Positions 2 through 56,619 of a stretch of DNA of 64,000 nucleotides are shown here, one piece after another. How positions within the stretch are numbered: the first letter of the stretch is position 1; the number at the start of each line of letters is the position of its first letter. The DNA is from a virus (taxonomy: Duplodnaviria; Caudoviricetes), in the IMG/VR virus record IMGVR_UViG_3300030330_006022, positions 50,351-114,350 of that record; one strand, given 5' to 3'. The notes below the pieces were generated by a model. That model was not told where the DNA came from. It made no database searches and worked only from the letters and a program-made list of their open reading frames with translations. The translations under genes and the position numbers were made by a program.

Positions 2-1051
2 CAAACCCAAGTCTTGTTACAACAAAAGCAATTGAGTCCTGATATAAGTTTGCAAATTACAATACCAAACGAATTTGAGAAAATAGCTCCAATCAACATA
101 GGCTATACAGCTGGTATAGAAACTAACAAGTGCTCCCCTCAATGGCTACCTAAGTGTAATGATATGGATAAAGTACTGGTTGTTTCAGAACACGCAAAAT
201 CCTCTATAGTGAATACAGTAGCAACAGCTACCAATAATAATACTGGAGAATCTTTTGATTATAAATGTGAAACTCCTGTAGAAGTTGTATGGGAAAATAC
301 AGTAAGATCAGAACCAGAAGAAATACCAGGCTTTGATCTAGAATTTGATAAAAACTTTTTAGTAGTTTCGCAACTTGGCCCTAGAAAGAATTTTGAAAAT
401 ACTGTATGTTGGTTTGTTGAAGAATTTATTGATCAAGAAGTTGGATTGGTTGTAAAGACTAATTTTAAAGGAAACTCAATTGGAGATTTTACACAAGTAG
501 AAAAACACCTTAAGTCTCTTCTTGGACGATATCAAAATCGTAAGTGTAAAGTTTATCTACTTCATGGGGATCTTAATCCTGGTCAAATGACCTCTTTGTA
601 TTCTAATTCTAAAATCACAGCTTTAGTAAATATTTCTCATGGCGAAGGTTTTGGCTTACCTATATATGAAGCAGCAAGAGAAAGTCTACCTATAATTACA
701 TGTGGCTGGTCTGGTCAACTAGATATCCTACATCATGGAGAGAAAGGGTATTTTAAATCTGTTGATTATACATTAAGACCAGTACAACAACAAGCAAGGT
801 GGAATGGTGTGATTGAAGAAGATGCTATGTGGGCTTTTGCCGATCAAGGATCTTACAAAATGGCACTAAGGTATGTAGCAAAAAATAAAAGTGAATTGAA
901 AGAACAATCAGCTAAATTAAAAGATTTAGTGTTGGAAAAATTTTCTGATGAAAAGTTGTTTGATTTATTCTGTAAATCAATAGTTGAAGAAGAAATGGAT
1001 ATTGACTCTTGGCTAGAAGAATTAGAATCAGGTATGGTAGAAAGTGAATAA
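2..1051 (+). CDS. Glycosyltransferase, GT4/GT-B fold (5' truncated by the window edge)
   Basis: RKN motif (GPRKNF) and the GT4 signature SHGEGFGLPIYEA; the frame is open back to position 2. Confidence 0.9.
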   Translation, partial: QTQVLLQQKQLSPDISLQITIPNEFEKIAPINIGYTAGIETNKCSPQWLPKCNDMDKVLVVSEHAKSSIVNTVATATNNNTGESFDYKCETPVEVVWENTVRSEPEEIPGFDLEFDKNFLVVSQLGPRKNFENTVCWFVEEFIDQEVGLVVKTNFKGNSIGDFTQVEKHLKSLLGRYQNRKCKVYLLHGDLNPGQMTSLYSNSKITALVNISHGEGFGLPIYEAARESLPIITCGWSGQLDILHHGEKGYFKSVDYTLRPVQQQARWNGVIEEDAMWAFADQGSYKMALRYVAKNKSELKEQSAKLKDLVLEKFSDEKLFDLFCKSIVEEEMDIDSWLEELESGMVESE

Positions 1052-1883
1052 AATATATTATTTTTCTGATTTGTTAGTAGAAGATCTGGTTGGCGGTGGT
1101 GAACTAAATGACTATGAACTTTGCAGTATGCTTTTAAAAAAAGGATACAAACTAACAAGATTAAGAACAAAAGAGATTAAACAAGAACACTTGGACAAAA
1201 AATATATTTACATTGTTTCTAATTTTGTAGGCTTAAGACCGGAGTACAAAGAATACTTAATTAAAAACTGTAAATATATAATTTATGAACACGATCACAA
1301 ATATCTTGCTTCAAGAAATCCAGCAATATATGAAAATTATCAAGCTCCAGAAAACAAAATAATCAACAAAAGTTTTTACGAAAACGCACAAATGGTTTTT
1401 TGTCAAAGTTCTTTTCATAAAAGCATAATCCAGAAAAATCTACAAATAGAAAATGTTTATAATGTATCTGGAAACTTATGGTCTATTGATAGTTTAGAAA
1501 CAATGAGACTTCTGAGTAAAAGGGACAAAAATGATTGTTTCTCTATTTTGAATTCTATGATAGAACATAAAAACACTAGAGAAGCTGCTTTTTATTGTGA
1601 TAAAAAAAACTTTAAATATACATTAATATCATCTAGAAATTATCAAGAGTTTCTTAATATGCTTTCTAGTAATAGTAAGTTTCTTTTTCTTCCTAAAACA
1701 CCTGAAACTTTATCTAGAGTTGTGGTTGAAGCAATGATGATGAATGTAAAAGTTGTTACAAATAAAAAAGTAGGCGCATCGTATGAGCCTTGGTTTAATA
1801 GAAAAGGAGAAGATTTGATAGACTTTATGTTAAACAAAAGAGAGCATATACTTAATAAAGTTTTAGAGGTGTTAGGTGAATAG
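1044..1883 (+). CDS. Glycosyltransferase-like protein (GT-B)
   Basis: N-terminal GGGELND and C-terminal PETLSRVVVEA (E-x7-E motif of GT4-like enzymes); overlaps both neighbours. Confidence 0.7.
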   Translation: MNKIYYFSDLLVEDLVGGGELNDYELCSMLLKKGYKLTRLRTKEIKQEHLDKKYIYIVSNFVGLRPEYKEYLIKNCKYIIYEHDHKYLASRNPAIYENYQAPENKIINKSFYENAQMVFCQSSFHKSIIQKNLQIENVYNVSGNLWSIDSLETMRLLSKRDKNDCFSILNSMIEHKNTREAAFYCDKKNFKYTLISSRNYQEFLNMLSSNSKFLFLPKTPETLSRVVVEAMMMNVKVVTNKKVGASYEPWFNRKGEDLIDFMLNKREHILNKVLEVLGE

Positions 1884-2622
1884 TCATTTTAAAATAATAG
1901 TTCCACTCTACAATGTTCAAGAGTGGATTAAGCTTTGTCTAAGATCTATTAAAGGTCAAACATATCGTAATTTTGAATGCATAATTATTGATGATATATC
2001 AACTGACAACAGTGTAGAAATAATAAAACAAGAGATTGGCAATGATGATAGATTTAAATTAATTGTAAATACAGAAAAAAAATATGCTTTAAAAAACATA
2101 CATGATGCGTTAATCGATTGTAACCCTAATGATGAAGATGTTATAGTAACAGTAGATGGAGATGATTGGCTAGCGAATAAAGATGTTTTAAAAACATTAA
2201 ATGAAGTGTATTCTTCTAATAATTGTTGGATGACTTATGGTAGCTATGCCGAATACCCTTCTAAAACAAGAGGTAAATTTGCTAAACAAATACCACAACA
2301 AGTCATAGATAAAAACTTATTTAGAAAACACGAATGGTGCTCTTCTCATTTAAGAACTTTTAAACACCACTTATGGAAATCTATTAACAAAGAGGATTTA
2401 ATAAATCCAGAAACAGGCAAGTTTATTAAAGCTGCATGGGACTTGGCTTTTATGTTTCCAATGTTGGAAATGTGTGGTAATAAATCTTTTTTCATCGATA
2501 AGGTACTGTACATTTATAATAGAGGCAATCCTCTAAACGAAGACAAAGTAAACCACAGCGTTCAATTAAACGAAGAAAGAATTGTCCGCAATAAAGAAGT
2601 ATATAATAGGATAGAGAATTGA
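1876..2622 (+). CDS. Glycosyltransferase family 2
   Basis: IIVPLYN, IIIDDISTD and VDGDDW (DxD) motifs. Confidence 0.92.
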   Translation: MNSHFKIIVPLYNVQEWIKLCLRSIKGQTYRNFECIIIDDISTDNSVEIIKQEIGNDDRFKLIVNTEKKYALKNIHDALIDCNPNDEDVIVTVDGDDWLANKDVLKTLNEVYSSNNCWMTYGSYAEYPSKTRGKFAKQIPQQVIDKNLFRKHEWCSSHLRTFKHHLWKSINKEDLINPETGKFIKAAWDLAFMFPMLEMCGNKSFFIDKVLYIYNRGNPLNEDKVNHSVQLNEERIVRNKEVYNRIEN

Positions 2623-3455
2623 AAAAAGTAAGTTTAAACATGATCAAAGGACCCTTTCAGCACGATATATGTTCTTCTGCTTTAAATACAAACAAGTATG
2701 TAGATTGGAAAAAGGATAATTCTGCTGATATATCTTGCCACATTGATTACGGATTGCTGGACAAGATAGATAGTACAAAAGAAAATTATGGTTGGGTATG
2801 TGAAAGCAGCGCCATAGTTCCATCTGTCATCAAAGAAGTTGTAAAAAACAAAGAGTCTTACAAAAAAAAATTTAAATACATTTTTACTTGTGATAGTAGA
2901 ATTGTAAACTTGGATAAAGATTTTTTTAAATTTACTATGCCATCAGCTTTGCCTTGGATACAAAATAAAAAGATATACAAAAAAACTAAATTAGTTTCTT
3001 TTATTGGTTCTAACAAAAAGATGTGTAAAGGCCACCTTTACAGACAAGAGATGATAGAAAAATACAAGGATAAAGTAGATCATTATGGTAGAGGTTTTAA
3101 AAACAAGGAGCTTCCATGGATGATAGAAAAAGAAAGTGGAAAAATATTAGGTCTAAAAGAATATATGTTTTCTTTTGCAATGGAAAACACAAACCATGAA
3201 TACGCATTTTGCGAAAAAACAACTGATTGTTTTGCCACTGGAACCATTCCAATATATTGGGGTGGAAAAGGAATTAAAGAATTTTTTGATCCTAAAGGCA
3301 TTATATTTATAGAGGATTTAAACTCTATAGATGAGTTAAATGAGGAATTATATAATTCAAAAATTGAATATATTGAGTCTAATTTTAAAAAACTAAACAG
3401 CCTATTAACATCAGAAGACTATTTTGTGAAAAACTACATAAGAGGTGAAGCTTGA
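2619..3455 (+). CDS. GT10 alpha-1,3-fucosyltransferase-like protein
   Basis: YMFSFAMEN...CEK..DCF..GTIPIYWG matches the GT10 motif. Confidence 0.85.
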   Translation: MKKVSLNMIKGPFQHDICSSALNTNKYVDWKKDNSADISCHIDYGLLDKIDSTKENYGWVCESSAIVPSVIKEVVKNKESYKKKFKYIFTCDSRIVNLDKDFFKFTMPSALPWIQNKKIYKKTKLVSFIGSNKKMCKGHLYRQEMIEKYKDKVDHYGRGFKNKELPWMIEKESGKILGLKEYMFSFAMENTNHEYAFCEKTTDCFATGTIPIYWGGKGIKEFFDPKGIIFIEDLNSIDELNEELYNSKIEYIESNFKKLNSLLTSEDYFVKNYIRGEA

Positions 3456-4318
3456 TAACTTGTAAATTTGCTGGTGGCTTGGGAAACAATTTGTTTCAGT
3501 TTGCTAATGTTTTTGCATTACATAGAAGACATAATGTTCCCTACTGTATTCAAAGAGATTTTCAAAGATTAACTTTTGATGGAAAGTTGTTAAAAGACGA
3601 ACTTAGATTTAAACAAGCTCATGTCTTGGAATTTCAAGAATTATTTGAAAATAAGCTTCCTTATATTGAAGAGTTAGCTGTGAACACTAAAAATATGAGC
3701 AACTATTATCATCATGATTTGGATGGAAGTAGTAATTTTTTGTTTTCGGAAGTTAAATTTAAAGATAATACAATGTATTATGGATACTATCAATCTGATA
3801 AATATTTTATGGATTCAAATTTGAAAGAAGAGCTGGTTGTCAATCGTGACATCACTGATATTATAAAGGATAGATACGCTGAACTTTTCAACAAACCAAC
3901 AATTTCATTACAATATAGACTTGGTGGAGATAGAAAGTTAAACAAGATTCAAAAGTTTCACAAAAACTTAAACCCAAGTTATTACACTAAAGCAGTTGAA
4001 GAAATATCAAGCATAACTGGTAAAAAAATTAGTGATTTCAATATTCTAGTTTTTTCTGATGATCTGGAACTAGCTAAAAAAGCTCTGTCATATACTACTT
4101 TAGATTGTGTTTATGTCGAAAACAAAAACAATATAGAAGATTTTATACACATGTCTATATGTGATCATAATATAATAGGAAACTCAACTTTTGCTTGGTG
4201 GGCTGCCTACATGAATAAAAACAGCGGATTAGTTATTGCTCCAAAAGATTTTTTTGGAAAAAATTATAGTAATTTTTTATTAGATGATTTCTATCCCACT
4301 GAATGGATAATTTTATAA
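3452..4318 (+). CDS. GT11 alpha-1,2-fucosyltransferase-like protein
   Basis: GGLGNNLFQ, GYYQS.KYF, VFSDD and IIGNSTFAWWAAY motifs; the usual HxRRGD motif reads QYRLGGD. Confidence 0.88.
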   Translation: MITCKFAGGLGNNLFQFANVFALHRRHNVPYCIQRDFQRLTFDGKLLKDELRFKQAHVLEFQELFENKLPYIEELAVNTKNMSNYYHHDLDGSSNFLFSEVKFKDNTMYYGYYQSDKYFMDSNLKEELVVNRDITDIIKDRYAELFNKPTISLQYRLGGDRKLNKIQKFHKNLNPSYYTKAVEEISSITGKKISDFNILVFSDDLELAKKALSYTTLDCVYVENKNNIEDFIHMSICDHNIIGNSTFAWWAAYMNKNSGLVIAPKDFFGKNYSNFLLDDFYPTEWIIL

Positions 4319-4328: not shown

Positions 4329-5255
4329 TTGAAAATTATTGGATTAGGAAAATATGTACCAGAAAGAATCTTGCCAAATGAAGAAATACAGAAAACTGTC
4401 AATACAACTTCAGAGTGGATTAAAAGCAAGCTTGGTATAAGTGAGAGAAGGATTAGCAATAGCGATGAAAAAACTTCCGATCTTGCCTTTAAAGCTAGTT
4501 TAAAAGCTTTAAAATCTTGTAATAACTCTATTGATGATATTGATTTGATTATTGTTGCAACTTCAACACCAGATAGAAAAAGCCCATCAACTGCTTGTAT
4601 ATTACAAGAAAAATTTGATTGTAAAAATATACCGGCTTTTGATATAAATGCTGTTTGTTCGGGTTTTATATATGGACTTGATTTGTGTAATTCTTTATTA
4701 AACGAAAACAAATACAATAAAATTTTGCTAGTAGGAGCAGAACAGTACTCTACTATTACAAATTGGGAAAGCAGAGATTGTGTTTTCTTTGGAGATGGTG
4801 CTGGTGCTGTTGTGCTAGAAAAAGACGAAACCAGTTTTTTCAAATCAATTATAAAAGCTGATGGCAAAGGAAAAGAAAACTTTACAGTTCCTTCTGGAGA
4901 AAAGTATTTTAAAATGAACGGAAAAGAAGTGTTTAAGCATGCTACAAATGTTCTTCCAAGTTCTATAAAACAATTGCTACACGAGAACAATCTAAAATCA
5001 AGCGATATTGCCTTGTGTGTTCCTCACCAGCCTAGTATAAGGATTCTTGAATTAACAGCTAAAAAAATAGGCTTATCGTTTGATAAAATAGCAAGAACAA
5101 TGCATAAGTATGCTAATACTGCTGGTGCTTCTATTCCTGTTACTTTGTGTGATGCTTTTGAACAAGGAAGATTAAAGAAAGGTGATTTAATTTTATTTAC
5201 AGCCGTAGGTTCTGGATGGACTTGGGGTTCTGCAATTATAAGGTGGGCGATATGA
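4329..5255 (+). CDS. fabH: 3-oxoacyl-ACP synthase III (KAS III)
   Basis: Cys-His-Asn triad intact (DINAVCSGF, VPHQPS, YANTAGAS); FGDGAGA and MNGKEVFK; TTG start after AGGAG. Confidence 0.93.
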   Translation: MKIIGLGKYVPERILPNEEIQKTVNTTSEWIKSKLGISERRISNSDEKTSDLAFKASLKALKSCNNSIDDIDLIIVATSTPDRKSPSTACILQEKFDCKNIPAFDINAVCSGFIYGLDLCNSLLNENKYNKILLVGAEQYSTITNWESRDCVFFGDGAGAVVLEKDETSFFKSIIKADGKGKENFTVPSGEKYFKMNGKEVFKHATNVLPSSIKQLLHENNLKSSDIALCVPHQPSIRILELTAKKIGLSFDKIARTMHKYANTAGASIPVTLCDAFEQGRLKKGDLILFTAVGSGWTWGSAIIRWAI

Positions 5256-5902
5256 AAAAAATGTTAATTATTGGTGGATCTGGTGGTATTGGAAAAGAAA
5301 TGACAAAACTGTTTTCAGATAAATATGAAGTTTTATCATGTAGTTCTAAAACTTTTGATATAACTAACTTGCCCTTTCTAGATAGGTTTTTTAGTCTTAA
5401 TACATATGATATTATTCTAAATGCTTCTGGTTACAATTATGATTCTTTTGTTCATAAATATAGTATAAAAAATATACATGAGGTTGACAAAATGATTGAT
5501 ATCAATGTAAAAGGTAATTTAAACCTACTTTCAGCTTGCCTCCCTGGTATGAGAAAACAAGGAAATGGTAGAATAATATTTTTATCTTCTGTTTTGTCAA
5601 CGATGCCTGTAGCAGGAACATCAGTATATTCCGCATCCAAAGCTTTTATAGATAATTTAGTCAAAACTGTAACTTTAGAAAACTTATCTAAAGGCATAAC
5701 TTGTAATTCTATACAATTAGGATATTTTGATGCTGGAATGGCACATAGAATTCCTGAAAAAATTATCAATAATATAGTAGATGGTATTCCATTAAAAAGA
5801 TTGGGAAAAATGGAAGAACTTTACAACACAATAGAGTATCTTATAAACACAGAGTATGTTTCTGGTACTTCAATAAAAATAAATGGAGGCATTGATTTAT
5901 GA
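5252..5902 (+). CDS. Short-chain dehydrogenase/reductase, FabG/PhaB-like ketoacyl reductase
   Basis: GGSGGIG, Ser in LSSV, YSASK and C-terminal VSGTSIKINGG; ATG at 5252 overlaps the fabH stop (ATGA). Confidence 0.85.
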   Translation: MKKMLIIGGSGGIGKEMTKLFSDKYEVLSCSSKTFDITNLPFLDRFFSLNTYDIILNASGYNYDSFVHKYSIKNIHEVDKMIDINVKGNLNLLSACLPGMRKQGNGRIIFLSSVLSTMPVAGTSVYSASKAFIDNLVKTVTLENLSKGITCNSIQLGYFDAGMAHRIPEKIINNIVDGIPLKRLGKMEELYNTIEYLINTEYVSGTSIKINGGIDL

Positions 5903-6420
5903 AACATGGAATAGACTTTTATATAAATGATGATGTTGTAATCAAAAGAAATGAAACAGCAATATTTGGCAACCATGTTGCCATCGACAAAGGCTTTTAC
6001 TGTACTACTCAAATAAATGTAGGTGATTATGTTCACATTTCTCCTTACTGTACTGTAATAGGTGGAAAAGATGGCATGTTTATAATGGAAGACTTCACAG
6101 GTCTTTCAGCTGGATGTAGAGTAGTTTGTTGTGGAGATGATTACATCTCAGGACACTTGATGAACCCAACTGTGCCAATAAAATATAGAAAAGTAAAAAA
6201 TGATAAAGTTGTTTTAAAAAGATTCAGTTGTTTAGGGACAAATTGTGTTGTATTACCAGGTGTGGTAATTGCAGAAGGTTCAGTTATAGGAGCTAATTCT
6301 TTGGTAAATAAATCAACAGAACCTTGGACTGTTTATGTTGGTAGTCCGGCAAAACCAATAAAAAAAAGATCTAAAGAGTTATCTTATAAATTTGCTAAGG
6401 AGCTTGGGTATGAATTATAA
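5899..6420 (+). CDS. Left-handed beta-helix sugar N-acyltransferase (AntD/VioB-like)
   Basis: Hexapeptide repeats; VGDYVHISPY, DDY...LMNPTVP and VYVGSPAKPIKKR resemble AntD as I recall it. Confidence 0.8.
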   Translation: MKHGIDFYINDDVVIKRNETAIFGNHVAIDKGFYCTTQINVGDYVHISPYCTVIGGKDGMFIMEDFTGLSAGCRVVCCGDDYISGHLMNPTVPIKYRKVKNDKVVLKRFSCLGTNCVVLPGVVIAEGSVIGANSLVNKSTEPWTVYVGSPAKPIKKRSKELSYKFAKELGYEL

Positions 6421-7309
6421 CGCAAAAGATGATTATGTTAATAAAGACTCTATGTCTATGCCATGGGTTGAATCACCTTTTTTTGAATCTATTTTACAAA
6501 ACTTAGATGTATCTGAAGAATTAAAAAGTATGGCTAGAAAATACAACAAAGACGGTTATGTGATTTTAGATTTAAACTTAGATGATGACATAATATTTAA
6601 AATCAATGAAGATGTAAAACAAATCATAAAATCTAAAAATTTTGTGGGACAAGAGAAATATGAATATACAGATCACAGAAGGCTTTTCCAAGCTTGGAAA
6701 AAAAGTAAAAATGTAAGAAGTTTAACAAAAAACGAGAAGATACTAAGTGCCTTAAGATTTCTTTATAATAGAGAACCTTTTGCTTTTTCAACAATTAATT
6801 TTACTAATCCAACTTCACAACCTCTACACAGCGATACGATACATTTCAACTCCTATCCAAAAGGATGGATGGTTGGTGTTTGGGTTGCTTTTGAAGACTG
6901 TGACGTGTCAAATGGAGCTTTGAGAGTTGTTAAAGGTAGTCATAAATGGAAAGAGTACGATTATAACTGTATAAATATAATCCACCCAGATAACAGAGAT
7001 GATGGAGAAAAAAAATCATACAGAGATTATGATCAATTTGTCAGAAGATTAGTTGTGTCAAAGAACGCAAAAGAAGATTCTGTTGTAATGAAAAAAGGAC
7101 AAGCAATTATTTGGTCTGCTAATTTACTTCATGGCGGTACACCAGTTGAAAATGATAAGGTTACAAGAAGATCCCAAGCCATTCATTACTTTTTTCATGG
7201 ATGTAAAAAATATTACACACCAATGTTTTCAGAACCAATGTTAGGCAAGTACGCTGAAAAATGGTGTAATGAGAAAGAAAATGTATTCACATATAAGGAG
7301 AAAAAATAA
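6410..7309 (+). CDS. Phytanoyl-CoA dioxygenase (PhyH) family Fe(II)/2-oxoglutarate dioxygenase
   Basis: QPLHSD (HxD), GVWVAFED, NGAL..VKGSHKW, LLHGG and TRRS; ATG at 6410 follows AGGAG. Confidence 0.88.
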   Translation: MNYNAKDDYVNKDSMSMPWVESPFFESILQNLDVSEELKSMARKYNKDGYVILDLNLDDDIIFKINEDVKQIIKSKNFVGQEKYEYTDHRRLFQAWKKSKNVRSLTKNEKILSALRFLYNREPFAFSTINFTNPTSQPLHSDTIHFNSYPKGWMVGVWVAFEDCDVSNGALRVVKGSHKWKEYDYNCINIIHPDNRDDGEKKSYRDYDQFVRRLVVSKNAKEDSVVMKKGQAIIWSANLLHGGTPVENDKVTRRSQAIHYFFHGCKKYYTPMFSEPMLGKYAEKWCNEKENVFTYKEKK

Positions 7310-7905
7310 TGTCTTTTCAAGTAATTGCTGATTTTGAGAAAGAAATAGCTAATTTCTTCGGAGCTCCATATGCAGTAGCAGTGGATTGCTGCACACACGG
7401 AATTGAGCTTTGCTTAAGAATGAAGCAAGTTAAAAAAATAAAAGTCCCAAAGAGAACTTACTTATCTGTTCCAATGTTAGCTAACAAACTTAATATTGAT
7501 CTGGAGTGGACCAATCAGGTGTGGCAAGATTATTATCATCTAACTGATGACATAATTGATGCTGCTGTTTTATGGAGAAAGAACAGTTATATTGCTGGTA
7601 CATATATGAGTGTGAGTTTCCAATTTAGAAAACACTTAAGTCTTGGTAGAGGTGGTATAATATTGTTTGATAAAGAAGAAGATTTCGACACATTGAAAAG
7701 AATGTCTTATGATGGAAGACACCCAGACCAACGATGGCACTTGCAGAATATAAAAACTATGGGATATCATTACTACATGACTCCTGAAACAGCTGAACTT
7801 GGTTTACAAAAGCTTCCTGAAGCAATTGAAAGAAAACCAAAACAATGGGTTTATACAGATTGGCCCGATCTAACTACAATGGATTTTTTTAAGGAGAACA
7901 AATGA
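7309..7905 (+). CDS. Short DegT/DnrJ/EryC1/StrS PLP-dependent aminotransferase-like protein
   Basis: FEKEIANFFGAPYAVAVDCCTHG, IIDAA and SFQFRKHLSLGRGG (PLP Lys); only 198 aa. Confidence 0.8.
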   Translation: MSFQVIADFEKEIANFFGAPYAVAVDCCTHGIELCLRMKQVKKIKVPKRTYLSVPMLANKLNIDLEWTNQVWQDYYHLTDDIIDAAVLWRKNSYIAGTYMSVSFQFRKHLSLGRGGIILFDKEEDFDTLKRMSYDGRHPDQRWHLQNIKTMGYHYYMTPETAELGLQKLPEAIERKPKQWVYTDWPDLTTMDFFKENK

Positions 7906-8819
7906 AAATATTATTATTAGGATCAACCGGTTTTATTGGTAGTAACCTAAAAACAAGACTAGAAAAAGAAGGACACACGATTTTTACTGCTGAAAGATCT
8001 AGTGGAGTAGATATAAGAAGATACAACGATATTCGCTTCACTATAAAATACACCAAACCAGATGTCATTTACAATTTAGCTTCTCACGGTGGCAGTGTGC
8101 ACTATGTAAGAAATAACTCAGCTGATGTTTTTCAAGACAATGTTTTAATGGCAATTAATTTATACAAAGCCATTTCAGAAGTTAACAAAGATATAAAGGT
8201 TATACAGCCTTTCTCTAACTGTTCTTATCCTGGAAAAAGTGATGTCCAATATGAAGAAGAGTGGTTGGATGGCGATGTACATCCATCAGTATTTTCTTTT
8301 GGTAATTCTAAAAGAACAATTTTTTATTTATCAAAATGTTACAAACAGCAATACGGAATAAGATCAGTAAACATATTGTTTCCTAATACTTATGGCCCTG
8401 GTGACTCTTTAGATCCAAACCACACACATGCTTTAAACGGCATGATCATAAGGATGCTAGAGGCTCAAAAAAAAGGTGACGAAGAATTTGTAGTCTGGGG
8501 GACTGGTTCTCCTATTAGAGAGTGGGCTTATATTGATGATTTTATAGAGGTACTAGTTAGGTGCTTAGAGATCGAAGGTCAAGAGTATCCTGTAAACATG
8601 GGCCAAGAAAAAGGATATTCTATTGCTGAATCTGCTGGTTTGATTAAAAGAGCCTGCAAGTTTAAAGGAAAGATAACTTTCGACACAAAATATAGAGATG
8701 GAGACCCAGTTAAAATAGTAAGTGGAGAAAAGTTCAAACAATTATTTAAAGACTTTGAGTTCTTTGATCACTATCAAGGAATAAAAAATACAGTAAAATA
8801 CTATAAGGAGAAAAAATGA
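7902..8819 (+). CDS. GDP-L-fucose synthase (Fcl/WcaG)-like epimerase/reductase
   Basis: GSTGFIG, SNCSYP, PNTYGPGD, H in NHTHAL and VWGTGSPIREW; YxxxK reads FGNSK. Confidence 0.8.
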   Translation: MKILLLGSTGFIGSNLKTRLEKEGHTIFTAERSSGVDIRRYNDIRFTIKYTKPDVIYNLASHGGSVHYVRNNSADVFQDNVLMAINLYKAISEVNKDIKVIQPFSNCSYPGKSDVQYEEEWLDGDVHPSVFSFGNSKRTIFYLSKCYKQQYGIRSVNILFPNTYGPGDSLDPNHTHALNGMIIRMLEAQKKGDEEFVVWGTGSPIREWAYIDDFIEVLVRCLEIEGQEYPVNMGQEKGYSIAESAGLIKRACKFKGKITFDTKYRDGDPVKIVSGEKFKQLFKDFEFFDHYQGIKNTVKYYKEKK

Positions 8820-10049: not shown

Positions 10050-10059
10050 GGAGAAAAAA

Positions 10060-24001: not shown

Positions 24002-24017
24002 TTTTTACTACAATAAT

Positions 24018-39183: not shown

Positions 39184-39184
39184 A

Positions 39185-47922: not shown

Positions 47923-47926
47923 CAAT

Positions 47927-50900
47927 ATGGCTATTGATGGTGGTATATATGGATTTGAACAAATACCAAACGTTTATATAAACAGTATAGAATTACATGA
48001 AAAAAAACCTGGTTCTACCAAAGAGGGTTTAATAGTCAAGGTTGAGTTTTTATATTACGATACAATGAACGAATATGATGAAGACTTGTTTACTAGTAAA
48101 TACACTTTAGACTCTATGAAGCTAAATACCTTATTAAGCCTAGATTCTAATCTTACAAATGAAATTGTCAATGGAAACAACCTTATACATAAACCAAGGA
48201 GCAGGCTTTTAAAAAGATTTCTAGATGACGAGCTCTGCATTTTAGACAATAAAGAAACAGCAAAAGTTTTTAATCAAGATATAGAAAAATGTGTATATGA
48301 TGAATATACTGAGTTTTATTATACAAAAACTTTTCATCTCAAAGAGACTCCACAACACTTATCTATTACTTGTTTGTTTTCAGATAGTGATTATAGAAAC
48401 AGAACAAGCTTTGGACCTACAACTTGTGAAACAATCATAGAAAATGGTAAAGTTGTTTTAAGCAGCAAGTTTCTTTTAAACAATGAAGAAATATGGACTG
48501 GACCTGTTCACGAACACGATGGTGTTATTATGGCCCACTCTTTTCATTCCAACAGCATTCCTCACCCTACATTGACTTCTGTTGGTTATCATAATTTAAA
48601 AATAAAAGACTTTAGAAGCCAGAGAATAAATTTGCCAGATGTGAAAAAAGAAAACAAGCAATCAAACTCAAAAGTAATATATTCTAATCTTTTTTACAAC
48701 CAGATGTCTAATCATGAACTTGGTATGGTCTTTTCTGCAAACATAAAAAGCATACTATTACAAAATTGTAAAGAAGCAATAATATTACAAGAAACAAGTC
48801 CCGAAGTTTTTAACAAACTAGCGCAAAATTTAAAAATAAAAAGTATAAAAATTGGAATCAAAGAACATCCAAGAAAGCCTTTTAGAAATGTTTTCTACTC
48901 TTTTGATCAAAATGAAAAAGTAAAGACAATACAAAATAAACTAGGAGAAATGAAAGAAATAGTTTTATCAAGCAACCCTTTTATAAGAACTTTTGATATT
49001 ATGTTAAAAACAAAAAGAATACATGAAATGAATGTGTTTATCGAGGTCAATAACCCATTAACAAAATATCTAGAAGATATTTATGAAAATTTTTCTAAAA
49101 ACATAACAGATTTAAAAATCAGCTTACAATACTTTAAAAAAGAAATGTTTTACGATAGAGAGACTGGTAAATTAGATAGAGAAAGAGTTGTAACTGAATT
49201 CGACAATCAGAATTCTACTTGGATTAGCTCCATAGCTCAAATATTGAAAATAAGAAGTTTGTTTCTTAGAGAAGATAATGAAGAAAGTGTGCAGGAATTT
49301 GTAATAAAATCGATGTCAAAAATATCCGCTAGATCATTTACTGTCGAATCTCTAGAAAGTTTTATAGATGATTGTTATTATTACTTAAAATTATTTGTAA
49401 GCATTTTTGAAATAAAAAAGAAATCTTTACCATCTAGTTTTGGAAGAGGCAAAAGATCAGGTAATAAAAATCACAAAGATGAATTAATTTCCTCTAAAAG
49501 ATATAGAATAAAATACAAATATAGAGGAAAAACAAAAAGTTATTTTAAAGACTCTCAAGACGTTGGAGTAAAATCATTTACTGTTTCTAGTTTTATGAGC
49601 CTAGTTCAGGATGAAAAAAACAAATTGGCTGGTGACTTTGCTAATGATATTATTAACATTTCAAATTACAATGAATACATCACTTTATCACCAAGGCTAT
49701 TGATTTCTGGTGGCGATAAATTCTCTTTTAACAGTCTTAAAACTATACAAGAAGACAAAATTTCAGTTTTTGTTGATTCTCTGCAAATATCCGAAGAAGA
49801 GCTTAGTAATTTGTTTGGTAAAAATATAAAAGTAGAATTTTTAGAAGAAGAAAAAGATTTGAATTTTGAAAACCTAAACTTAGGAACTGACAATAATTTT
49901 GGAACACAAACTGTAACTACAGATGAGTCTTTAGCCCCAGATAGAACTAAGGCAATAAAAGACAGTGTAGTTTTAGTTGGAAACAAAAATAGTAAAAAAA
50001 CAAAAAAAATAGTCGACAAAGTGTCCCCAAAAACCGACAGTTCTATATATTCCACAGGTCAAGAAGAAGGGTTTAATGAAGCAAGTGACGTGCCTATTCA
50101 CTATGTTTTCCTAGCAAACTTAAATGTTTCAAATAAAGTTTTTGGTAGCACAATGGATTTTTTAAGAGACAAAAGATATACAAGAGATTTGGCTTTCTTT
50201 AATTTAGAAAGAGTTTATTACGAAGAGTATGATCTTTTTGATGACTCTGGTGATCCCATTGTAGGTCTTGGAAAAATTAAGCCTTTAACAATGAGTGTTT
50301 TAAACAACTTAGAAGAGCCAATTATCTGCACTTTGAATTCTTATCATGATCCTGATTTTAATATAGATAATAATCAATTTGAAAGGTTTGAAACAATAGA
50401 TAGGAACTTTATAATATATCCTAATAATTTTTCTTTTTCAAAACAACAGTTATCCACAACTACAGGAGAAGATGCTTTAGAGTTTAAAGAATTGTACGAT
50501 GCTTATTACAGTCTTGATGTTCAAGAACTACAGTTTTCGAGAACTAACATAGTAAAAGAATCTTTAACTAGAAAAAACAATAGATACGAAAAAGGATTAA
50601 GAGTTAATATTAACAGATTTAATAATATGGATAGACAAAGAGCAAGGTATTTTAATAAATTAAAACAAGAAAAAAGAAGAAAAATAATTAAAGAAGAAAG
50701 AAGACAAAGAAGATTACAAGCAGATAGAAGAAAAGCAAATAAATTAAGAAGAATGAAACAAGAACAAGAAGAAGCAGAAAGAAAAATGATGTTAATGAAA
50801 ATGCTAGAAAATGAAAAAAAACAAAACAAACAAATTGATATATCAAAATTCAAACCCATGAAGCCTCTTCGGACATTCCCTGCGATTTCATCTGGAATAG

Positions 50901-51199
50901 TAACCAAAAAGCTTGAAAAAGCAGACCCCGAATTAGAAAACCTAGCGATGGAACTTGAAGACGAAATAGAAACAACCACTATTATACCGGATAAAGTTGT
51001 ACCACCTTTGCCAATTGCTGCTCCTCTAGAACCGGTAAGACCAACCACAAGTAGACCACCATCTAGACCACCATCCCCAAGCACATCTAGACCATCATCT
51101 GCTAATACACTAAGGCCCTCTGCCAATCGTCCTTCAAACAACAGAGGTGGTGGCCGTGGCGGTGGTAGGAGCGGCGGCTCAAGAGGAGGAGGATACTGA
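47927..51199 (+). CDS. Hypothetical structural-module protein with a low-complexity C-terminal tail
   Basis: GAGGA RBS before ATG 47927; His cluster WTGPVHEH...HSFH...HP; E/K/R helix, RPxS repeats and an RGG...GGGY end. Confidence 0.7.
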   Translation: MAIDGGIYGFEQIPNVYINSIELHEKKPGSTKEGLIVKVEFLYYDTMNEYDEDLFTSKYTLDSMKLNTLLSLDSNLTNEIVNGNNLIHKPRSRLLKRFLDDELCILDNKETAKVFNQDIEKCVYDEYTEFYYTKTFHLKETPQHLSITCLFSDSDYRNRTSFGPTTCETIIENGKVVLSSKFLLNNEEIWTGPVHEHDGVIMAHSFHSNSIPHPTLTSVGYHNLKIKDFRSQRINLPDVKKENKQSNSKVIYSNLFYNQMSNHELGMVFSANIKSILLQNCKEAIILQETSPEVFNKLAQNLKIKSIKIGIKEHPRKPFRNVFYSFDQNEKVKTIQNKLGEMKEIVLSSNPFIRTFDIMLKTKRIHEMNVFIEVNNPLTKYLEDIYENFSKNITDLKISLQYFKKEMFYDRETGKLDRERVVTEFDNQNSTWISSIAQILKIRSLFLREDNEESVQEFVIKSMSKISARSFTVESLESFIDDCYYYLKLFVSIFEIKKKSLPSSFGRGKRSGNKNHKDELISSKRYRIKYKYRGKTKSYFKDSQDVGVKSFTVSSFMSLVQDEKNKLAGDFANDIINISNYNEYITLSPRLLISGGDKFSFNSLKTIQEDKISVFVDSLQISEEELSNLFGKNIKVEFLEEEKDLNFENLNLGTDNNFGTQTVTTDESLAPDRTKAIKDSVVLVGNKNSKKTKKIVDKVSPKTDSSIYSTGQEEGFNEASDVPIHYVFLANLNVSNKVFGSTMDFLRDKRYTRDLAFFNLERVYYEEYDLFDDSGDPIVGLGKIKPLTMSVLNNLEEPIICTLNSYHDPDFNIDNNQFERFETIDRNFIIYPNNFSFSKQQLSTTTGEDALEFKELYDAYYSLDVQELQFSRTNIVKESLTRKNNRYEKGLRVNINRFNNMDRQRARYFNKLKQEKRRKIIKEERRQRRLQADRRKANKLRRMKQEQEEAERKMMLMKMLENEKKQNKQIDISKFKPMKPLRTFPAISSGIVTKKLEKADPELENLAMELEDEIETTTIIPDKVVPPLPIAAPLEPVRPTTSRPPSRPPSPSTSRPSSANTLRPSANRPSNNRGGGRGGGRSGGSRGGGY

Positions 51200-53175
51200 T
51201 GTCTGAATTTATAACCTCAGTTGCGTATCATATAGCTGATGATACTGATGTACAATACATGGTCCAACCTTACTTCAACTACGTTGCTCTGGACTACAAT
51301 GAAAGACAAGATATGCAAATGCCTTGTTTGTATAGTGAATACGTTTACGAACCTAGGAATGCACCAGATACTTACAAAGATTGCCAAGTAGGTGATGGTA
51401 AATTTGGAAAAGAATATAAATATGGTGAATATAGTAAAAGATATTTGTTTGATAATGAATCATTACCTACTTTAACACCCGAACAGATAGAAAAAATATC
51501 AAATCTATATATTTTAGGTAAAAACTTTAGAACTTTAGCCACCAACTCAGTGAGAAAATTTACAGGAACTGATGAAATATCGGGTCATTTTCCTCAACAT
51601 GTTAAAATTTCTTTAGGTGGCAATAAACTTAAACCAATAACTGGTGGACTTTTAGAATTTTTAATATCTAGTAGAGTGTATTATGGTGATCAAGCAACAT
51701 ACTACATGCCTTATTTTGTGAGAAATGTAATTGAAAAGTACACTATAGGCTCGGATGGTAACTTAAAAAGAGATCGTGATAATAATGTTTCAACAATCTT
51801 GGACGAGAATGTAGTTACCGATTCGCTCTATAAATTTAGAGCTTTTGATCCTGATGATGCTTTTGTTCAAATTGACCCAATATCTGATCAAATAGGAAGA
51901 AGAAGATATATAAATCATTTGTTAACTCACATAGACACGCTTGCTGAAGAGTTGCCACTTTATTATGACGAAACCATATTTTATGAAGTTCAAAAAAGAG
52001 TTGGTACTGAGGTTATTCAAACTTTTTATGTTTGTATTTCCGACACAGATTCTACAGAATGGGAATTTGTTGACACACAAGTAAAACCACAAGTAGAATA
52101 TAACTATGTTTGTTATTCATGGAAATATTTTGCTTTTGATAAAACTTTGAAAAGAAGTGACAACACACAAGTTTTTAATCAAACTATTAAAATAGAACAA
52201 CCACCTTTACCAGTACCATCAGTTACTTTTGCATTAGAAAACGATGTTAAAAATAAATATAAATTTTCTATTGGTTTAGACCTCTCTGTTAATTCAGAAC
52301 ATGGACCTTTTTATGAAATGTTTGCTGGGGAAGAGGATGAGCTAAAAGCTAGAGAAGAATTGTTTAATATACACGGCACTAAGACAAGATTTGTGTACGA
52401 AACACAAGAAGGTATATATGAAATTTATAAATCCACAACACAACCTTATGAAAGTAAAAATGGAAAATATAGAGCTGTGGATCTTATATCATCTTCAGAA
52501 ACTATAGTTTCCACAGGAGGAACTAGTCTTCAATATTTACAGAGTGTACAGAGTTTTAAAAAATATTACTATGTTATTAGAGCTATTAATGCTTATGGCT
52601 ATCCTTCAAACCCTACTCCAATTTATGAAGTAGAAATGACAGAGGATGCAGATGAAGTCTTTCTAAATACTAAAGTAGTTGATTTTGTTGATCCTACAAA
52701 AGATAAATATAAAAACTTTAAAACAATGATGAAACTAATGCAAATAATACCTTCAAGTGAGCAGTTGTTTTTCGAACCAGGCGGGGCTCTGTCTAATGAA
52801 CAAATAGAAGGTGATCCGCTGTTAGATTCAGAGGGTAGACAATACTTGGGGTATAGAAATGATGATAACAATATAGTGTATACTGGTTATGTTGATATTG
52901 ACGGATCTTATGTGTTTTATCCAAACATTTCACCAGAATTTCAAAATATCTCTCTTCCTTTAAAACAAAGAGGACCAGAGGTAGATTCCTTAACTATTTT
53001 TGATGATATGGAGCTGCCAACCTTGGGTATCAGTGAAAATGACTCTATGTGGAAAACATTTGATCCAAATGGTACTGTTAAGGATAAAGGAAAAAGGTTT
53101 AAAATTAGAGTTGTTTCTAATGATAGTGGAAGAAAAATTGATTTAAATGTTAGTTTTGCATTAAAGAAAAATTAA
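51199..53175 (+). CDS. Hypothetical structural protein with FN3-like segments
   Basis: FVDTQVKP..EYNY and KYYYVIRAINAYGYPSNP resemble FN3 strands; TGATG coupling. Confidence 0.6.
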   Translation: MSEFITSVAYHIADDTDVQYMVQPYFNYVALDYNERQDMQMPCLYSEYVYEPRNAPDTYKDCQVGDGKFGKEYKYGEYSKRYLFDNESLPTLTPEQIEKISNLYILGKNFRTLATNSVRKFTGTDEISGHFPQHVKISLGGNKLKPITGGLLEFLISSRVYYGDQATYYMPYFVRNVIEKYTIGSDGNLKRDRDNNVSTILDENVVTDSLYKFRAFDPDDAFVQIDPISDQIGRRRYINHLLTHIDTLAEELPLYYDETIFYEVQKRVGTEVIQTFYVCISDTDSTEWEFVDTQVKPQVEYNYVCYSWKYFAFDKTLKRSDNTQVFNQTIKIEQPPLPVPSVTFALENDVKNKYKFSIGLDLSVNSEHGPFYEMFAGEEDELKAREELFNIHGTKTRFVYETQEGIYEIYKSTTQPYESKNGKYRAVDLISSSETIVSTGGTSLQYLQSVQSFKKYYYVIRAINAYGYPSNPTPIYEVEMTEDADEVFLNTKVVDFVDPTKDKYKNFKTMMKLMQIIPSSEQLFFEPGGALSNEQIEGDPLLDSEGRQYLGYRNDDNNIVYTGYVDIDGSYVFYPNISPEFQNISLPLKQRGPEVDSLTIFDDMELPTLGISENDSMWKTFDPNGTVKDKGKRFKIRVVSNDSGRKIDLNVSFALKKN

Positions 53176-53184
53176 CGAACTTAA

Positions 53185-53195
53185 CTACTTATTTA
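53185..53195 (+). promoter_or_regulatory. Putative late promoter (CTACTTATTTA)
   Basis: Intergenic TATTTA ends 18 nt before ATG 53214, followed by AGGAG. Confidence 0.55.
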
Positions 53196-53213
53196 CAGAT
53201 TAGGAGAAAAAAT

Positions 53214-54179
53214 ATGGGTTTTTTAGATAATTCTGGTGATATTATACTAGATGCTGTTTTGACCGATTATGGTAGAAAGGTATTATCAAAAGGAGATGGG
53301 ACTTTCAAAATTGTAAAATTTGCTTTAGGTGATGAAGAAATAAATTATGAATTGTATGATTCAACGAATGCTAATGGTTCTGCTTATTATGATTTAGAAA
53401 TTTTACAAACTCCAATTTTAGAAGCGTTCACAGATAATGCTATATCGATGAAATCTAAATTAGTTACTTATGAGAACTTAGATTTACTGTATCTACCTGT
53501 AATAAAGATGAATGATAGTGACACAATGCATCAACTGCATGCTAGTGGTTCTTTTATAGTTGCTGTAGATGGTTTAACTGAAAATGACAACGGGTCTACT
53601 GCAACCCAAGGTGGTATTGGTTTCTCAGGCGGATCAAGAGTTACAGGTGTTTTGTTTGGACAGACCGTTTCAGGTGGTGGGTTTATAAGATTAGACCAAG
53701 GACTAGATACTTTTGCGATTTCTTTTCAAAAAAATATCCCTAGAGACATGTATGAGACTGGTTTTATAGTACAAATTGATAACAGATTTGGAGAAATTAC
53801 TGATATAAATGGTGTCACAATGCCTGTGGACTATGTAGATGACGATGACATTGCTTTCTATACATTAACAAGTTTACAAGCACCAGCCTTCAGAAACAAC
53901 CCAAACAAAACAGATGCGGCAGATTCAAACGGTTCTACTCAGGTAATAAAAGGTCCTCGTGGTTCTATTTTAGAATTTAAGATTAGAGCTTCTTTAGATC
54001 TTAATACAAGCACTTATTTATTTAATGAGTTAGGAAGCACATCAGCATTAGATAACAGAGCAGGTGGTTCTTCAGTGGTGTATCACATTGATAGTATCAT
54101 AAGAGTCACAGGTGTCACAACAGGTTATACAGTTGATATTCCTGTTCGTTTTGTAAAATTCAAACAACTTAATTCATAA
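53214..54179 (+). CDS. Virion/baseplate structural protein
   Basis: MGFLDNS..ILDAVLTDYGR...FKIVKFALGDEEINY resembles the N-terminal part of the tail-collar (DUF3751-like) domain. Confidence 0.65.
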   Translation: MGFLDNSGDIILDAVLTDYGRKVLSKGDGTFKIVKFALGDEEINYELYDSTNANGSAYYDLEILQTPILEAFTDNAISMKSKLVTYENLDLLYLPVIKMNDSDTMHQLHASGSFIVAVDGLTENDNGSTATQGGIGFSGGSRVTGVLFGQTVSGGGFIRLDQGLDTFAISFQKNIPRDMYETGFIVQIDNRFGEITDINGVTMPVDYVDDDDIAFYTLTSLQAPAFRNNPNKTDAADSNGSTQVIKGPRGSILEFKIRASLDLNTSTYLFNELGSTSALDNRAGGSSVVYHIDSIIRVTGVTTGYTVDIPVRFVKFKQLNS

Positions 54180-54192: not shown

Positions 54193-55323
54193 ATGGCTAA
54201 TGGTTCATTTAAAACTTTAGGAGGAAACGACATTGTTTCCACACGCACACTTCTTCACGAAGCTATTCCTTTAACAGGAACAATTGTATCAGGAACTTAC
54301 GCTGATGCTAATGTTAAAAAACATTCTCACGGAATGTTTCAGTCTGTTTACGACTATCCGTTTTTAAGCTCATCAGCAAATCACATTTTTGATATCACAG
54401 CTGGTGTTGCTGCTAATTCACTTTTGTATAGCACAGTAACATCACAGCAAAAGAAAAAGAAAAACGTTTATGGACAGATGGCGCAGATTCTTGTAGGATA
54501 CGACATAACAGGGTCAGTTCTAGATTTTGATGCCGACGGTAATATATTAGCTGGTGGTGATAAATTAAGAGAAGTGTTTATTTTACCCATGTCTAGATTG
54601 TTGGTAAAAGATGAAATTAAAAAAGAAACATTTAACTTAGAAATAGGAGTTAAGCCTGCTTATGATGAAGCAGGAGCGTTGTTTGATGATAGACTAACAA
54701 TCACAGATCACGGAGCAGCCAGTAGTTATTTTGTGAATTCACCTGCTGGGGAATATGGTATTCTTTATGCAACATGCTCAACAGGACAATCATCAGTAGG
54801 GTCTCACGATGTTATGCATGCTACAAACCAACGAGTAGCGTGTGGATTGATTTATTATCAAGCAGGAATAATTGTAGTCTCTTCTTCTATATTTAAGCCA
54901 GCTAGTGCTGGTGGAATATTACACAACTCTCATGGAAGTGTTTTAATGGATGGACCAAAAGGTAAAGGTGTTGCCACTGAAACTGTCGATGCAGTATTAA
55001 CAGGGTCTTTAATATCAAAAGCAGGTGACAACTTTAGAACAAGAATGTATAATCTTTCTTTCAACAATACAACAGAACTTAATTCAACAATTTATTTTTG
55101 TAGAGTAAGACATGATGAGTTTAATTATTCATCCAATCCAACTTATCTAACAGGTTCAAAAATTAGAGTAAAGCAAAATGCTACTATGGACCCAGTTTCT
55201 TATATTACAACAATCGGTCTGTATTCTTCTGCAAATGAATTAATGGCAGTTGCTAAACTATCAGAACCTCTAAAGAAAACACCTTCGCAAGAATTTACGC
55301 TAAGAGTTAGATTAGATTACTAA
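54193..55323 (+). CDS. Virion/baseplate structural protein (paralog A)
   Basis: C-terminal EFNYSSNPT...YITTIGLY...ELMAVAKLSEPLKK...LRVRLDY. Confidence 0.7.
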   Translation: MANGSFKTLGGNDIVSTRTLLHEAIPLTGTIVSGTYADANVKKHSHGMFQSVYDYPFLSSSANHIFDITAGVAANSLLYSTVTSQQKKKKNVYGQMAQILVGYDITGSVLDFDADGNILAGGDKLREVFILPMSRLLVKDEIKKETFNLEIGVKPAYDEAGALFDDRLTITDHGAASSYFVNSPAGEYGILYATCSTGQSSVGSHDVMHATNQRVACGLIYYQAGIIVVSSSIFKPASAGGILHNSHGSVLMDGPKGKGVATETVDAVLTGSLISKAGDNFRTRMYNLSFNNTTELNSTIYFCRVRHDEFNYSSNPTYLTGSKIRVKQNATMDPVSYITTIGLYSSANELMAVAKLSEPLKKTPSQEFTLRVRLDY

Positions 55324-55325
55324 TA

Positions 55326-55332
55326 CTATTTA
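55326..55332 (+). promoter_or_regulatory. Putative late promoter CTATTTA
   Basis: Lies in a 24-nt intergenic gap, 15 nt before ATG 55348. Confidence 0.6.
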
Positions 55333-55347
55333 CTTAGAGGCGTAATC

Positions 55348-56619
55348 ATGGCAATATTTAAATTCGACGATAATGATGTATTCATAAACACTATTGAAGC
55401 GTATGCGGAATACTCTTTTATAATAAACAACGGAAACGTGTTTGTAGACAATAGACCAAATGTCACTGGTTCTTTTGCTCCAAACAACGATACCACAGTT
55501 TTAGGTGTGCCTTCTGGGTTTGTATCTCTTTATGAGGTTAATGTTAATAGACCAGGTGATAGTGAAGAAACTAGTCATAACATAACTCCTTTCGTAGTTA
55601 AAGATGGATATAAACATGCTTTCAAAACAGAAACAAAGTCAGAATATAACGTAAAGCATGAATTTGGGGAAACAATTCAAGGAAATTATAATTTAAGCTC
55701 TTCAATAATGCAATATTTTTATGAAAGCGGACATAATGCGCCCATGAAAAGAATATATGATGGCAAAAAAACCATCAAAGTAACAGGTGAAACAGAAGAA
55801 ATTATGTATTTTTCTGTTAAAAATGTTATAGAAGAATATAAGTTTTTATCACCTCATATGAAAATGATAACCGAGGCTCCTTTAAACGAGAGAAATCTAT
55901 CAACAACAGAAATATCATTAGTAACAATACCATCAATATTTTATGGACAAAAAATAAAACCTGGAACTGTTGAGCTAAATTATTACGTCACCGGTACTCT
56001 AGTTGCTACTTTAAAAGACACAAAACAAAATGGTGAACTAATCCAAACATATTCGACATCATCTTCACCAGAAGATTATTCAGGCTCAGTTGCAGGAATA
56101 TTGTTGTATGGTGAAGGCTTAATGTTTTTAACAGGAGCTTATCAATTAGGTGAAGACAACGATATAAACTATTCAGGCTCTAGTGGCACATTAAATAAGT
56201 GGACACACTTTGGTTCAGGACTACACCAAGATGTATCCTCAAATACTGATATTGAAAAAGCAACATTTGAAATAAAATATCAAGGAATCACAGAAGCACC
56301 AACAGTCATGATGATGTGTCATGCGAACTATGGAGAGCTAAACTGGTCAAACAACCCGACCTTCTTGTCTTCTTCAGAAAGAAACGATGACTTTACATTA
56401 TCCAACAAAAGATTTATACAGCAAGATGTTGATATACAAAATGTTACACATACAAAATTAACAGACGATGAAGAACCAAATTTTAAAAGAGAAACATATA
56501 TTTCTAAGGTAGCCATTTATGATGATAAGAAAAATCTTATTGGTGTAGCTACACTAGCTAACCCTGTTCGTAAGACAGAGGATCGTCAATATACTTTTAA
56601 ATTAAAATTAGATTTATAG
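55348..56619 (+). CDS. Virion/baseplate structural protein (paralog B)
   Basis: IKPGTV, GILLYGEG and ELNWSNNPT...YISKVAIYD...LIGVATLANPVRK...FKLKLDL, matching the upstream gene. Confidence 0.7.
   Translation: MAIFKFDDNDVFINTIEAYAEYSFIINNGNVFVDNRPNVTGSFAPNNDTTVLGVPSGFVSLYEVNVNRPGDSEETSHNITPFVVKDGYKHAFKTETKSEYNVKHEFGETIQGNYNLSSSIMQYFYESGHNAPMKRIYDGKKTIKVTGETEEIMYFSVKNVIEEYKFLSPHMKMITEAPLNERNLSTTEISLVTIPSIFYGQKIKPGTVELNYYVTGTLVATLKDTKQNGELIQTYSTSSSPEDYSGSVAGILLYGEGLMFLTGAYQLGEDNDINYSGSSGTLNKWTHFGSGLHQDVSSNTDIEKATFEIKYQGITEAPTVMMMCHANYGELNWSNNPTFLSSSERNDDFTLSNKRFIQQDVDIQNVTHTKLTDDEEPNFKRETYISKVAIYDDKKNLIGVATLANPVRKTEDRQYTFKLKLDL

Follow-up and report, generated by a model that had tools for sequence, protein, structure and literature searches.

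The window analysed here is the final 64 kb (64,000 nucleotides, positions 50,351 to 114,350) of a 114,350-bp contig, IMG/VR record IMGVR_UViG_3300030330_006022, from an uncultured, T4-like, marine phage (completeness 63% by CheckV). Several proteins of its tail module are strongly enriched in the tripeptide [ST]-[GA]-S, and a cluster of glycan genes precedes that module. The initial annotation read the tripeptide as an O-glycosylation sequon for a phage-made glycan coat. Motif statistics, conservation, distribution and gene content, all observed directly, confirm that the enrichment is stronger and more specific than that annotation could tell. Selection may have maintained the tripeptide as a clade-specific tag on outward-facing parts of the tail and baseplate, and its likeliest role, held tentatively, is that of an acceptor for O-glycosylation in the cytoplasm.

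Expected counts were obtained from composition-preserving global shuffles, supplemented by local shuffles inside windows of 40 amino acids (aa), which led to the same outcome. The excess was 3-6x in five tail-module proteins, one of them only weakly enriched. The giant 3965-aa tail protein with LamG-like repeats (27286..39183, + strand, like all called genes in the window) contains 46 [ST]G[ST] sites against 14 expected (z about 9 with global and 8.2 with local shuffles). The 482-aa outer baseplate protein (25848..27296), an array of beta-sandwiches with a domain resembling a carbohydrate-binding module, has six [ST]GS sites, with 1.8 [ST]G[ST] expected, and TGS alone occurs five times against 0.4. 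Five [ST]G[ST] sites each are found in the 376-aa tail protein (54193..55323; 1.1 expected) and its 423-aa paralogue (55348..56619; 0.9 expected). Enrichment is weak in the 2909-aa tail-module protein (14825..23554; 6 against 2.4 expected, z 2.7), with a concentration at residues 2370-2586. Across the entire, unselected tail module, the ratio was 2.6 (z 8.7).

All motifs listed in the initial annotation are present (ATGS, ASGS, LTGS, FTGS and HTGS in the 482-aa protein; ITGS, VSGT and two copies of LTGS in the 376-aa protein), in addition to GTGS in the former and LTGT in the latter. Its counts of the broader [ST][GAS][ST], made by eye, were also accurate (9 for the 423-aa protein, 4 for the Rad50-like protein of 1054 aa), and the comparison with composition-preserving shuffles that it recommended gave strong enrichment. 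Its description of the baseplate region as repeatedly motif bearing applies to the 482-, 3965-, 376- and 423-aa proteins but not to those of 2547, 368, 1108, 658 and 321 aa, which, like the 601-aa gp6-like protein and gp25, are not enriched by shuffling.

The signal is set by the order and identity of residues at the protein level, and its core is [ST]-[GA]-S. The permuted orders G[ST][ST] and [ST][ST]G occur close to expectation, and serine is far above threonine at the third position. Residue specificity was determined in proteins pooled from five phages and preselected for [ST]G[ST] enrichment, the alanine variant not being a selection criterion. Before G-S, serine was found at 5.9x and threonine at 5.7x expectation, compared with 0.9x for asparagine and 1.7x for aspartate, and alanine as the middle residue was found at 2.8-4.0x. 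Hydrophobic residues are preferred on either side of the motif. Most other sequence patterns gave no signal. The general O-glycosylation sequon of Bacteroidota, D-[ST]-[AILVMT], occurs 64 times across the tail module against 52.6 expected (z 1.6), and there is no enrichment of SG-hydrophobic, GSP, DS[AD] or GxT[GA]; [ST]GxT reaches 2.2x.

Several trivial causes of the excess were rejected. Codons at the sites are diverse (56 distinct 9-mers among 77 sites), which argues against a cause at the DNA level, and shuffling within 40-aa windows eliminates local composition. Internal repeats do not account for the signal, as the excess survives masking of the later repeat copies in the 3965-aa protein (30 against 8.6 expected). 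A generic Asx/ST-turn was rejected because N-G-S is not enriched.

The motif is well conserved in the 376-aa family, in which the motif columns are almost invariant among 120 homologues of 60-100% identity. At two of the sites, the middle residue ranges over G, S and A, or over G, S, Q, N, A and E, with serine at position +2 retained by 119 of the 120 homologues. In the 376-aa protein itself, the conserved +2 serines are S108, S232 and S322. The family is very abundant in marine samples, with at least 8000 homologues at an E value of <=1e-5; the top 120 are those 60-100% identical, and many are from Tara Oceans. As the homologues include many from Tara and other marine samples, the lineage is, by this measure, an abundant marine myovirus. 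The C-terminal ~80 residues of the 376-aa protein are common to several paralogous tail proteins of Microcystis phage Mel-JY01, Flavobacterium phage immuto and Rhodothermus phage RM378.

Turnover of the motif is evident in the more divergent 482-aa family (150 representatives, 38-67% identity), with 1124 [ST]G[ST] sites against 290 expected and 333 and 407 for the permuted controls. Each sequence has on average 6.3 sites; four conserved columns account for 2.5 of these and 58 sporadic columns for another 2.5, compared with a chance expectation of 1.35 sites in total. Since both conserved and sporadic columns hold sites, the alignment indicates that the motif is both conserved and repeatedly created anew.

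In an AlphaFold2 model of the 482-aa protein (pLDDT 92.6), the sites at residues 29, 82, 134, 250 and 422 lie in loops, that at residues 48-51 is at the tip of a hairpin and those at 302 and 337 are mid-strand, so that no single secondary-structure context prevails. At the mid-strand sites, the hydrophobic flanks imply, by alternation along the strand, that both hydroxyls would face outwards. The model is a chain of beta-sandwich domains, one of which resembles a chondroitin-sulfate-binding carbohydrate-binding module (8wab, TM 0.71 on target). The model of the 376-aa protein was mediocre (pLDDT 63) and gave no fold match. The motif is present in unrelated folds: the sheath insertion, LamG-like repeats, beta-sandwich arrays and a lysozyme-like protein.

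The nearest cultured relatives are Mel-JY01 and immuto (~30% identity in the gp6-like baseplate protein). In both complete genomes, enrichment is restricted to a distal baseplate/fibre block and a second structural block, while the portal, terminase, gp6, ~200 non-structural open reading frames (ORFs) and the major capsid protein (2 against 1.2 expected in immuto) are at chance. The sheath of immuto has 11 sites, every one of them within variable residues 62-345 and none in the C-terminal core shared with Mel-JY01, RM378 and the clade genome G004. Distant relatives included in the motif test were immuto, Mel-JY01, RM378 and LR756508 (an uncultured phage, 484 kb), and tail blocks are enriched in all four. 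Furthermore, 80 related IMG/VR loci contain 1625 sites against 639 expected (2.5x), with every locus at least 1.5x. In four clade genomes, the non-structural proteins (about 98,000 aa) contain 99 sites against 84 expected, and the gp6-like protein of the contig has none (0.8 expected), as in relatives.

Outside the clade, no enrichment was found in the baseplate, fibre and sheath proteins of T4. In three marine T4-like phages, S-PM2, HTVC008M and P-SSM2, the excess is 1.4-1.7x over the whole genome and does not go beyond about 2.3x in the giant proteins. A glycan cluster is present in P-SSM2, S-PM2 has no glycosyltransferase (GT) match of family GT1 or GT2, and HTVC008M has only a sub-threshold GT2 match. 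A generic property of tail fibres was rejected on the basis of the negative result for T4 and the weak enrichment in the three marine phages.

The 14-gene glycan cluster, at 2-10911, is confirmed by Pfam and also extends 1.4 kb upstream of the window, where it starts at gtA, a second GT4 gene. The window opens within gtB (2..1051; Pfam Glycos_transf_1), whose ORF of 414 aa begins 193 nt ahead of the window, directly downstream of gtA. The two genes form a conserved tandem pair encoding soluble, GT4-type proteins, and both products retain the EX7E motif. Best Protein Data Bank matches of the pair are chlorovirus glycosyltransferase B736L, BshA and MshA-type GT4 enzymes, B736L being the best solved-structure match of gtA (E 1e-6). 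Four further soluble transferases follow (1044..4318): a 279-aa weakly GT-B-like protein with a weak GT1 match, a GT2 enzyme and GT10-like and GT11-like fucosyltransferases, giving six GT-type genes in or adjoining the window.

The rest of the cluster (4329..10911) consists of sugar-nucleotide and modification genes with Pfam matches and with homologues (24-42% identity) in the glycan region of P-SSM2. They encode FabH-like, SDR, hexapeptide acyltransferase, PhyH dioxygenase and short DegT-like proteins, three NAD epimerase/dehydratases (of which the last resembles GDP-mannose dehydratase) and a small Mpo1-like membrane protein, which at 100 aa is the only clearly hydrophobic protein of the cluster. 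Transmembrane-like segments are absent from every transferase of the cluster, and no flippase, polymerase or membrane priming transferase was seen among its genes by Pfam and a check for such segments. The DegT-like ORF, directly 3' of the PhyH dioxygenase gene (region 6392-7905 of the window), is 198 aa, covers the middle of a 360-position profile and may be a truncated or unusual aminotransferase. A phosphomannomutase gene lies 10 kb upstream. Comparison of the cluster with phage records by megablast gave zero matches. The late sigma factor that the initial annotation placed downstream of the cluster can be retained only as a possible gp55-like protein (11627..12328), with a weak match to phrog_234 (E 4.4e-4).

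The GT4 genes accompany the motif throughout the clade. Every complete or near-complete relative checked has a GT4 gene (15/15) and 14 of 15 have at least two; among the near-complete relatives the tandem pair is found in 10/11 and one GT4 gene in the eleventh, and the presence of GT2 is variable. Among 50,697 phage records, gtA homologues occur only in immuto, Mel-JY01, LR756508 and RM378, of which immuto and Mel-JY01 have orthologues of both gtA and gtB, and RM378 has one of gtA. In RM378 (L126:3001-5729), the gtA homologue and the next ORF (425 aa) lie between DNA-polymerase-I-like and ribonucleotide reductase genes. Because this homologue sits among replication-type genes, the GT4 gene appears to travel with the clade over very different hosts and neighbourhoods; hosts of the clade range over Bacteroidota, Rhodothermota and Cyanobacteria. 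Mel-JY01 in addition encodes a 1226-aa protein (L044:4750-8430) with a GT4 domain, TibC_1st and GT9 (heptosyltransferase). The gene adjoins those for motif-rich structural proteins, with a cytidylyltransferase-like gene nearby. The TibC-like N-terminal domain followed by GT9 is the arrangement seen in protein O-heptosyltransferases of bacteria, and the product is thus a candidate for O-glycosylation of proteins by a phage. Neither a GT9 nor a TibC-like gene was found in the contig or in ten marine relatives at least 90% complete; a lone GT9 match is present in G011.

These data suggest a mechanism in which the modification of the tag, the enzyme that acts and the sugar attached are all deduced rather than seen. 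The [S/T]-[G/A]-S motif, usually flanked by hydrophobic residues, would present a serine hydroxyl as acceptor for soluble phage glycosyltransferases in the cytoplasm. Transfer of the first sugar is best ascribed, as a candidate role, to the conserved GT4 pair of gtA and gtB. The variable remainder of the cluster, including GT2, the two fucosyltransferase-like enzymes, GDP-fucose-type genes and N-acyl amino-sugar genes, would then supply and extend a lineage-specific glycan. It is conceivable, and far from assured, that the entire clade, including immuto, Mel-JY01 and RM378, sugar-coats its exposed tail, baseplate and sheath through this motif as read by the GT4 pair.

Parallels exist in other systems. 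According to the account of Freeman et al. (2023) given in PMC12619734, mycobacteriophage Che8 bears glycans at the C-termini of its capsid and tail-tube subunits. As in that account, the phage described here is a tailed phage with its own glycosyltransferases, which are shown (Che8) or proposed (here) to decorate virion proteins in the cytoplasm. Unlike in Che8, outer tail, baseplate and sheath-protrusion proteins hold the candidate sites, as tripeptides inside the chain, and capsid proteins of the relatives are not enriched. The conserved enzymes also differ, with GT4 here and GT2-type matches in Che8, and glycosylation in the present lineage is a candidate only. In the literature searched, virion glycosylation of tailed phages was found for mycobacteriophages only, on terminal tails and with no defined sequon.

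The bacterial autotransporter heptosyltransferases TibC/Aah, acting on TibA and AIDA-I, are comparable in that they O-glycosylate, in the cytoplasm, serines that lie in short strand-loop-strand motifs on beta-rich surface proteins, and Mel-JY01 has the TibC_1st and GT9 pair beside a motif-rich structural protein. They differ in that the contig and the ten marine relatives lack such a gene. The GtfA/GtfB system, an O-GlcNAc transferase pair of serine-rich-repeat adhesins, likewise has an adjacent GT-B/GT4 gene pair as its conserved core with variable accessory transferases, and its acceptors are serines beside small residues. GtfB is non-catalytic, whereas both phage proteins keep EX7E. Furthermore, isolated tripeptides within folded domains take the place of long serine-rich repeats as acceptors, there is no accessory Sec system, and no specific sequence similarity of the phage GT4 pair to GtfA/GtfB emerged. 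Capsid and fibril glycosylation of chloroviruses and mimivirus also combines soluble virus-encoded transferases with pathways for GDP-fucose and amino sugars. The acceptor proteins and sequons of these eukaryotic viruses are different, and the similarity of gtA to B736L is weak.

A number of observations count against glycosylation of the tag. The 368-, 1108-, 658- and 321-aa tail-module proteins lack it and the 2547-aa protein largely does so, and the motif is not depleted from non-virion proteins, in which it occurs slightly above expectation. Local excesses also occur outside the clade, in phages that gave no GT1 or GT2 match at threshold: in a 420-aa protein of HTVC008M (6 against 0.8 expected) and a 292-aa protein of S-PM2 (4 against 0.7). 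No report of glycosylated virions in the clade was found in the literature searched. The high conservation of motif columns, with occasional asparagine or aspartate at position 1, would also suit a structural role. No clade member is without GT4 genes; co-occurrence is therefore perfect but provides no independent contrasts, and the association of glycosyltransferases with the motif is phylogenetically confounded, reflecting a single shared ancestry.

Regulation provides a further objection. The promoter ahead of gtA (TTGACA-N17-TATAAT; G000:C1:48862-48890, 51 nt upstream of gtA) is of an early-type sigma-70 class, and the same type lies upstream of RuvC-like, Mre11-like and phosphomannomutase genes. 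Because this promoter type is that of recombination-type genes, the glycan cluster is assigned, from sequence, to the early or middle expression class. Tail genes carry a different motif, CTATTTAC, 22-26 nt ahead of the start codon, so the adjacency of cluster and tail genes is not co-regulation. None of the three computational outcomes that the initial annotation listed as refuting it occurred, although the third, equal enrichment in relatives lacking GT clusters, carries no weight as every relative has glycosyltransferases. Overall, the sequon interpretation of the initial annotation gains partial and still provisional support: enrichment, specificity and conservation agree with it, while the early-type promoter and the untagged tail proteins do not.

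The main rival, itself a substantial possibility, is that the tripeptide is an unmodified structural or ligand-contact signature of beta-rich domains of the outer tail and that the cluster acts elsewhere, most likely on host envelope glycans. Two hydroxyls on an exposed strand or loop face would serve folding, trimer packing, hydration or weak polysaccharide binding. A role in host envelope glycans during infection has already been proposed for the lipopolysaccharide (LPS)-type clusters of marine cyanomyoviruses. The very high column conservation, the replacement of position 1 by N or D in some columns and the absence of the motif from some tail-module proteins are all compatible with such a signature, and hydrophobic flanks are typical of strand-turn-strand. 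The early-type promoter on the cluster, the homology of its enzymes to the P-SSM2 glycan region and the mild enrichment in giant proteins of phages without GT matches point in the same direction. P-SSM2-type LPS clusters resemble the present one in combining sugar-nucleotide dehydratase/epimerase genes with GT genes in a marine T4-like phage. They differ in that the P-SSM2 tail proteins are only mildly enriched overall and the tandem GT4 pair has no tblastn match in P-SSM2.

Nevertheless, no one structural role fits sites that lie in loops, at a hairpin tip and in mid-strand, and the motif occurs in unrelated folds. At two sites of the 376-aa family, the glycine is less conserved than the serine at +2. 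N-G is a classic turn, and N-G-S is not enriched. The sporadic sites of the 482-aa family by themselves exceed the total chance expectation. Tail proteins of T4 and the cyanophage giants, which are rich in beta-sandwiches, have no comparable enrichment. A cluster acting on the host envelope is also difficult to reconcile with the absence of a flippase, polymerase and membrane priming transferase. Serotype-converting gtrABC systems consist of a membrane flippase, a bactoprenol glucosyltransferase and a membrane GtrC, and the transferases here are without transmembrane-like segments. The sequon reading is the best single explanation, and a structural or binding signature is its main rival.

It is improbable that the serine carries another covalent modification (phosphorylation, acylation or a cross-link) made by a host or phage enzyme unrelated to the cluster. 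Hydroxyl specificity and the invariant serine at +2 indicate a functional hydroxyl and say nothing of its chemistry, which leaves room for this explanation. Against it, no conserved Hanks-type kinase was found in the clade, and the GT4 genes are the only conserved protein-modifying candidates found. A shared host enzyme is less likely because the hosts span three phyla.

Modification of phage DNA by the transferases, as in T4 or other phages with hypermodified DNA and with the motif unrelated, is very improbable. The early-type promoter and the position of the RM378 GT4 gene among replication-type genes would fit. However, no ThyA-family hydroxymethylase (PF00303) was found in G004 (100% complete), Mel-JY01, RM378 or the contig, and so the hydroxymethyl-pyrimidine pathway of T4-type DNA glucosylation has no match. 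Fucosyltransferase-like and N-acyl amino-sugar genes are also atypical of such systems. Outside the window, positions 10001-20000 of the contig (G000:C1:10001-20000) contain zero GGCC, CCGG, GCGC and CCWGG sites, compared with 1-12 of each per 10 kb in the remainder, and purging of a 10-kb stretch would be needless if cytosines were globally glycosylated. An artefactual origin of the enrichment, through composition, low complexity or internal duplication, has a negligible probability: tail proteins are S/T/G-rich and the giant protein has internal repeats, but local and global shuffles, permuted orders, repeat masking and hundreds of homologues reject it.

Other features of the tail module complete the picture. 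The gp25-like and gp6-like inner baseplate wedge proteins (23582..25848; Pfam and PHROG matches) are without the motif. In the 2547-aa giant protein (39173..46816), only the alanine variant is mildly enriched ([ST]A[ST] 11 against 5.0 expected; [ST]G[ST] 7 against 6.3). The unenriched proteins of 368, 1108, 658 and 321 aa are encoded at 46816..54179. The 1108-aa protein (47873-51199) has zero [ST][GAS][ST] against 3.4 expected and no Pfam or PHROG match, and its gene sits where the GC content of the window is lowest (about 31%).

The contig contains ten canonical promoters of the TTGACA-N16-18-TATAAT type, mostly with a TGT extension, including those at 56620 and 58078 of the window. The sequence [CT]TATTTA[CG] occurs at 24018, 53189, 55326, 57164, 62229 and 62245 of the window, 22-26 nt upstream of the genes at 24043, 53214, 55348 and 57190 and 32-48 nt upstream of that at 62277. 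From this placement, it may be the late promoter of the lineage. The T4 late promoter consensus, TATAAATA, is not enriched (6 against 10 expected). Related metagenomic genomes are 184-201 kb in size.

The three cultured members of the clade (immuto, Mel-JY01 and RM378) make these proposals directly testable. If the tag proves to be unmodified, it would still represent an unexplained, strongly selected signature of outer tail proteins. If it is an acceptor site, the system would be the first sequon-directed protein glycosylation known in tailed phages, and glycosylated virion proteins would be predictable from sequence alone. It would also provide a role for the long-unexplained glycan clusters of marine myoviruses, with consequences for adsorption, sticking to debris or mucus, particle stability and recognition by defence systems or grazers.

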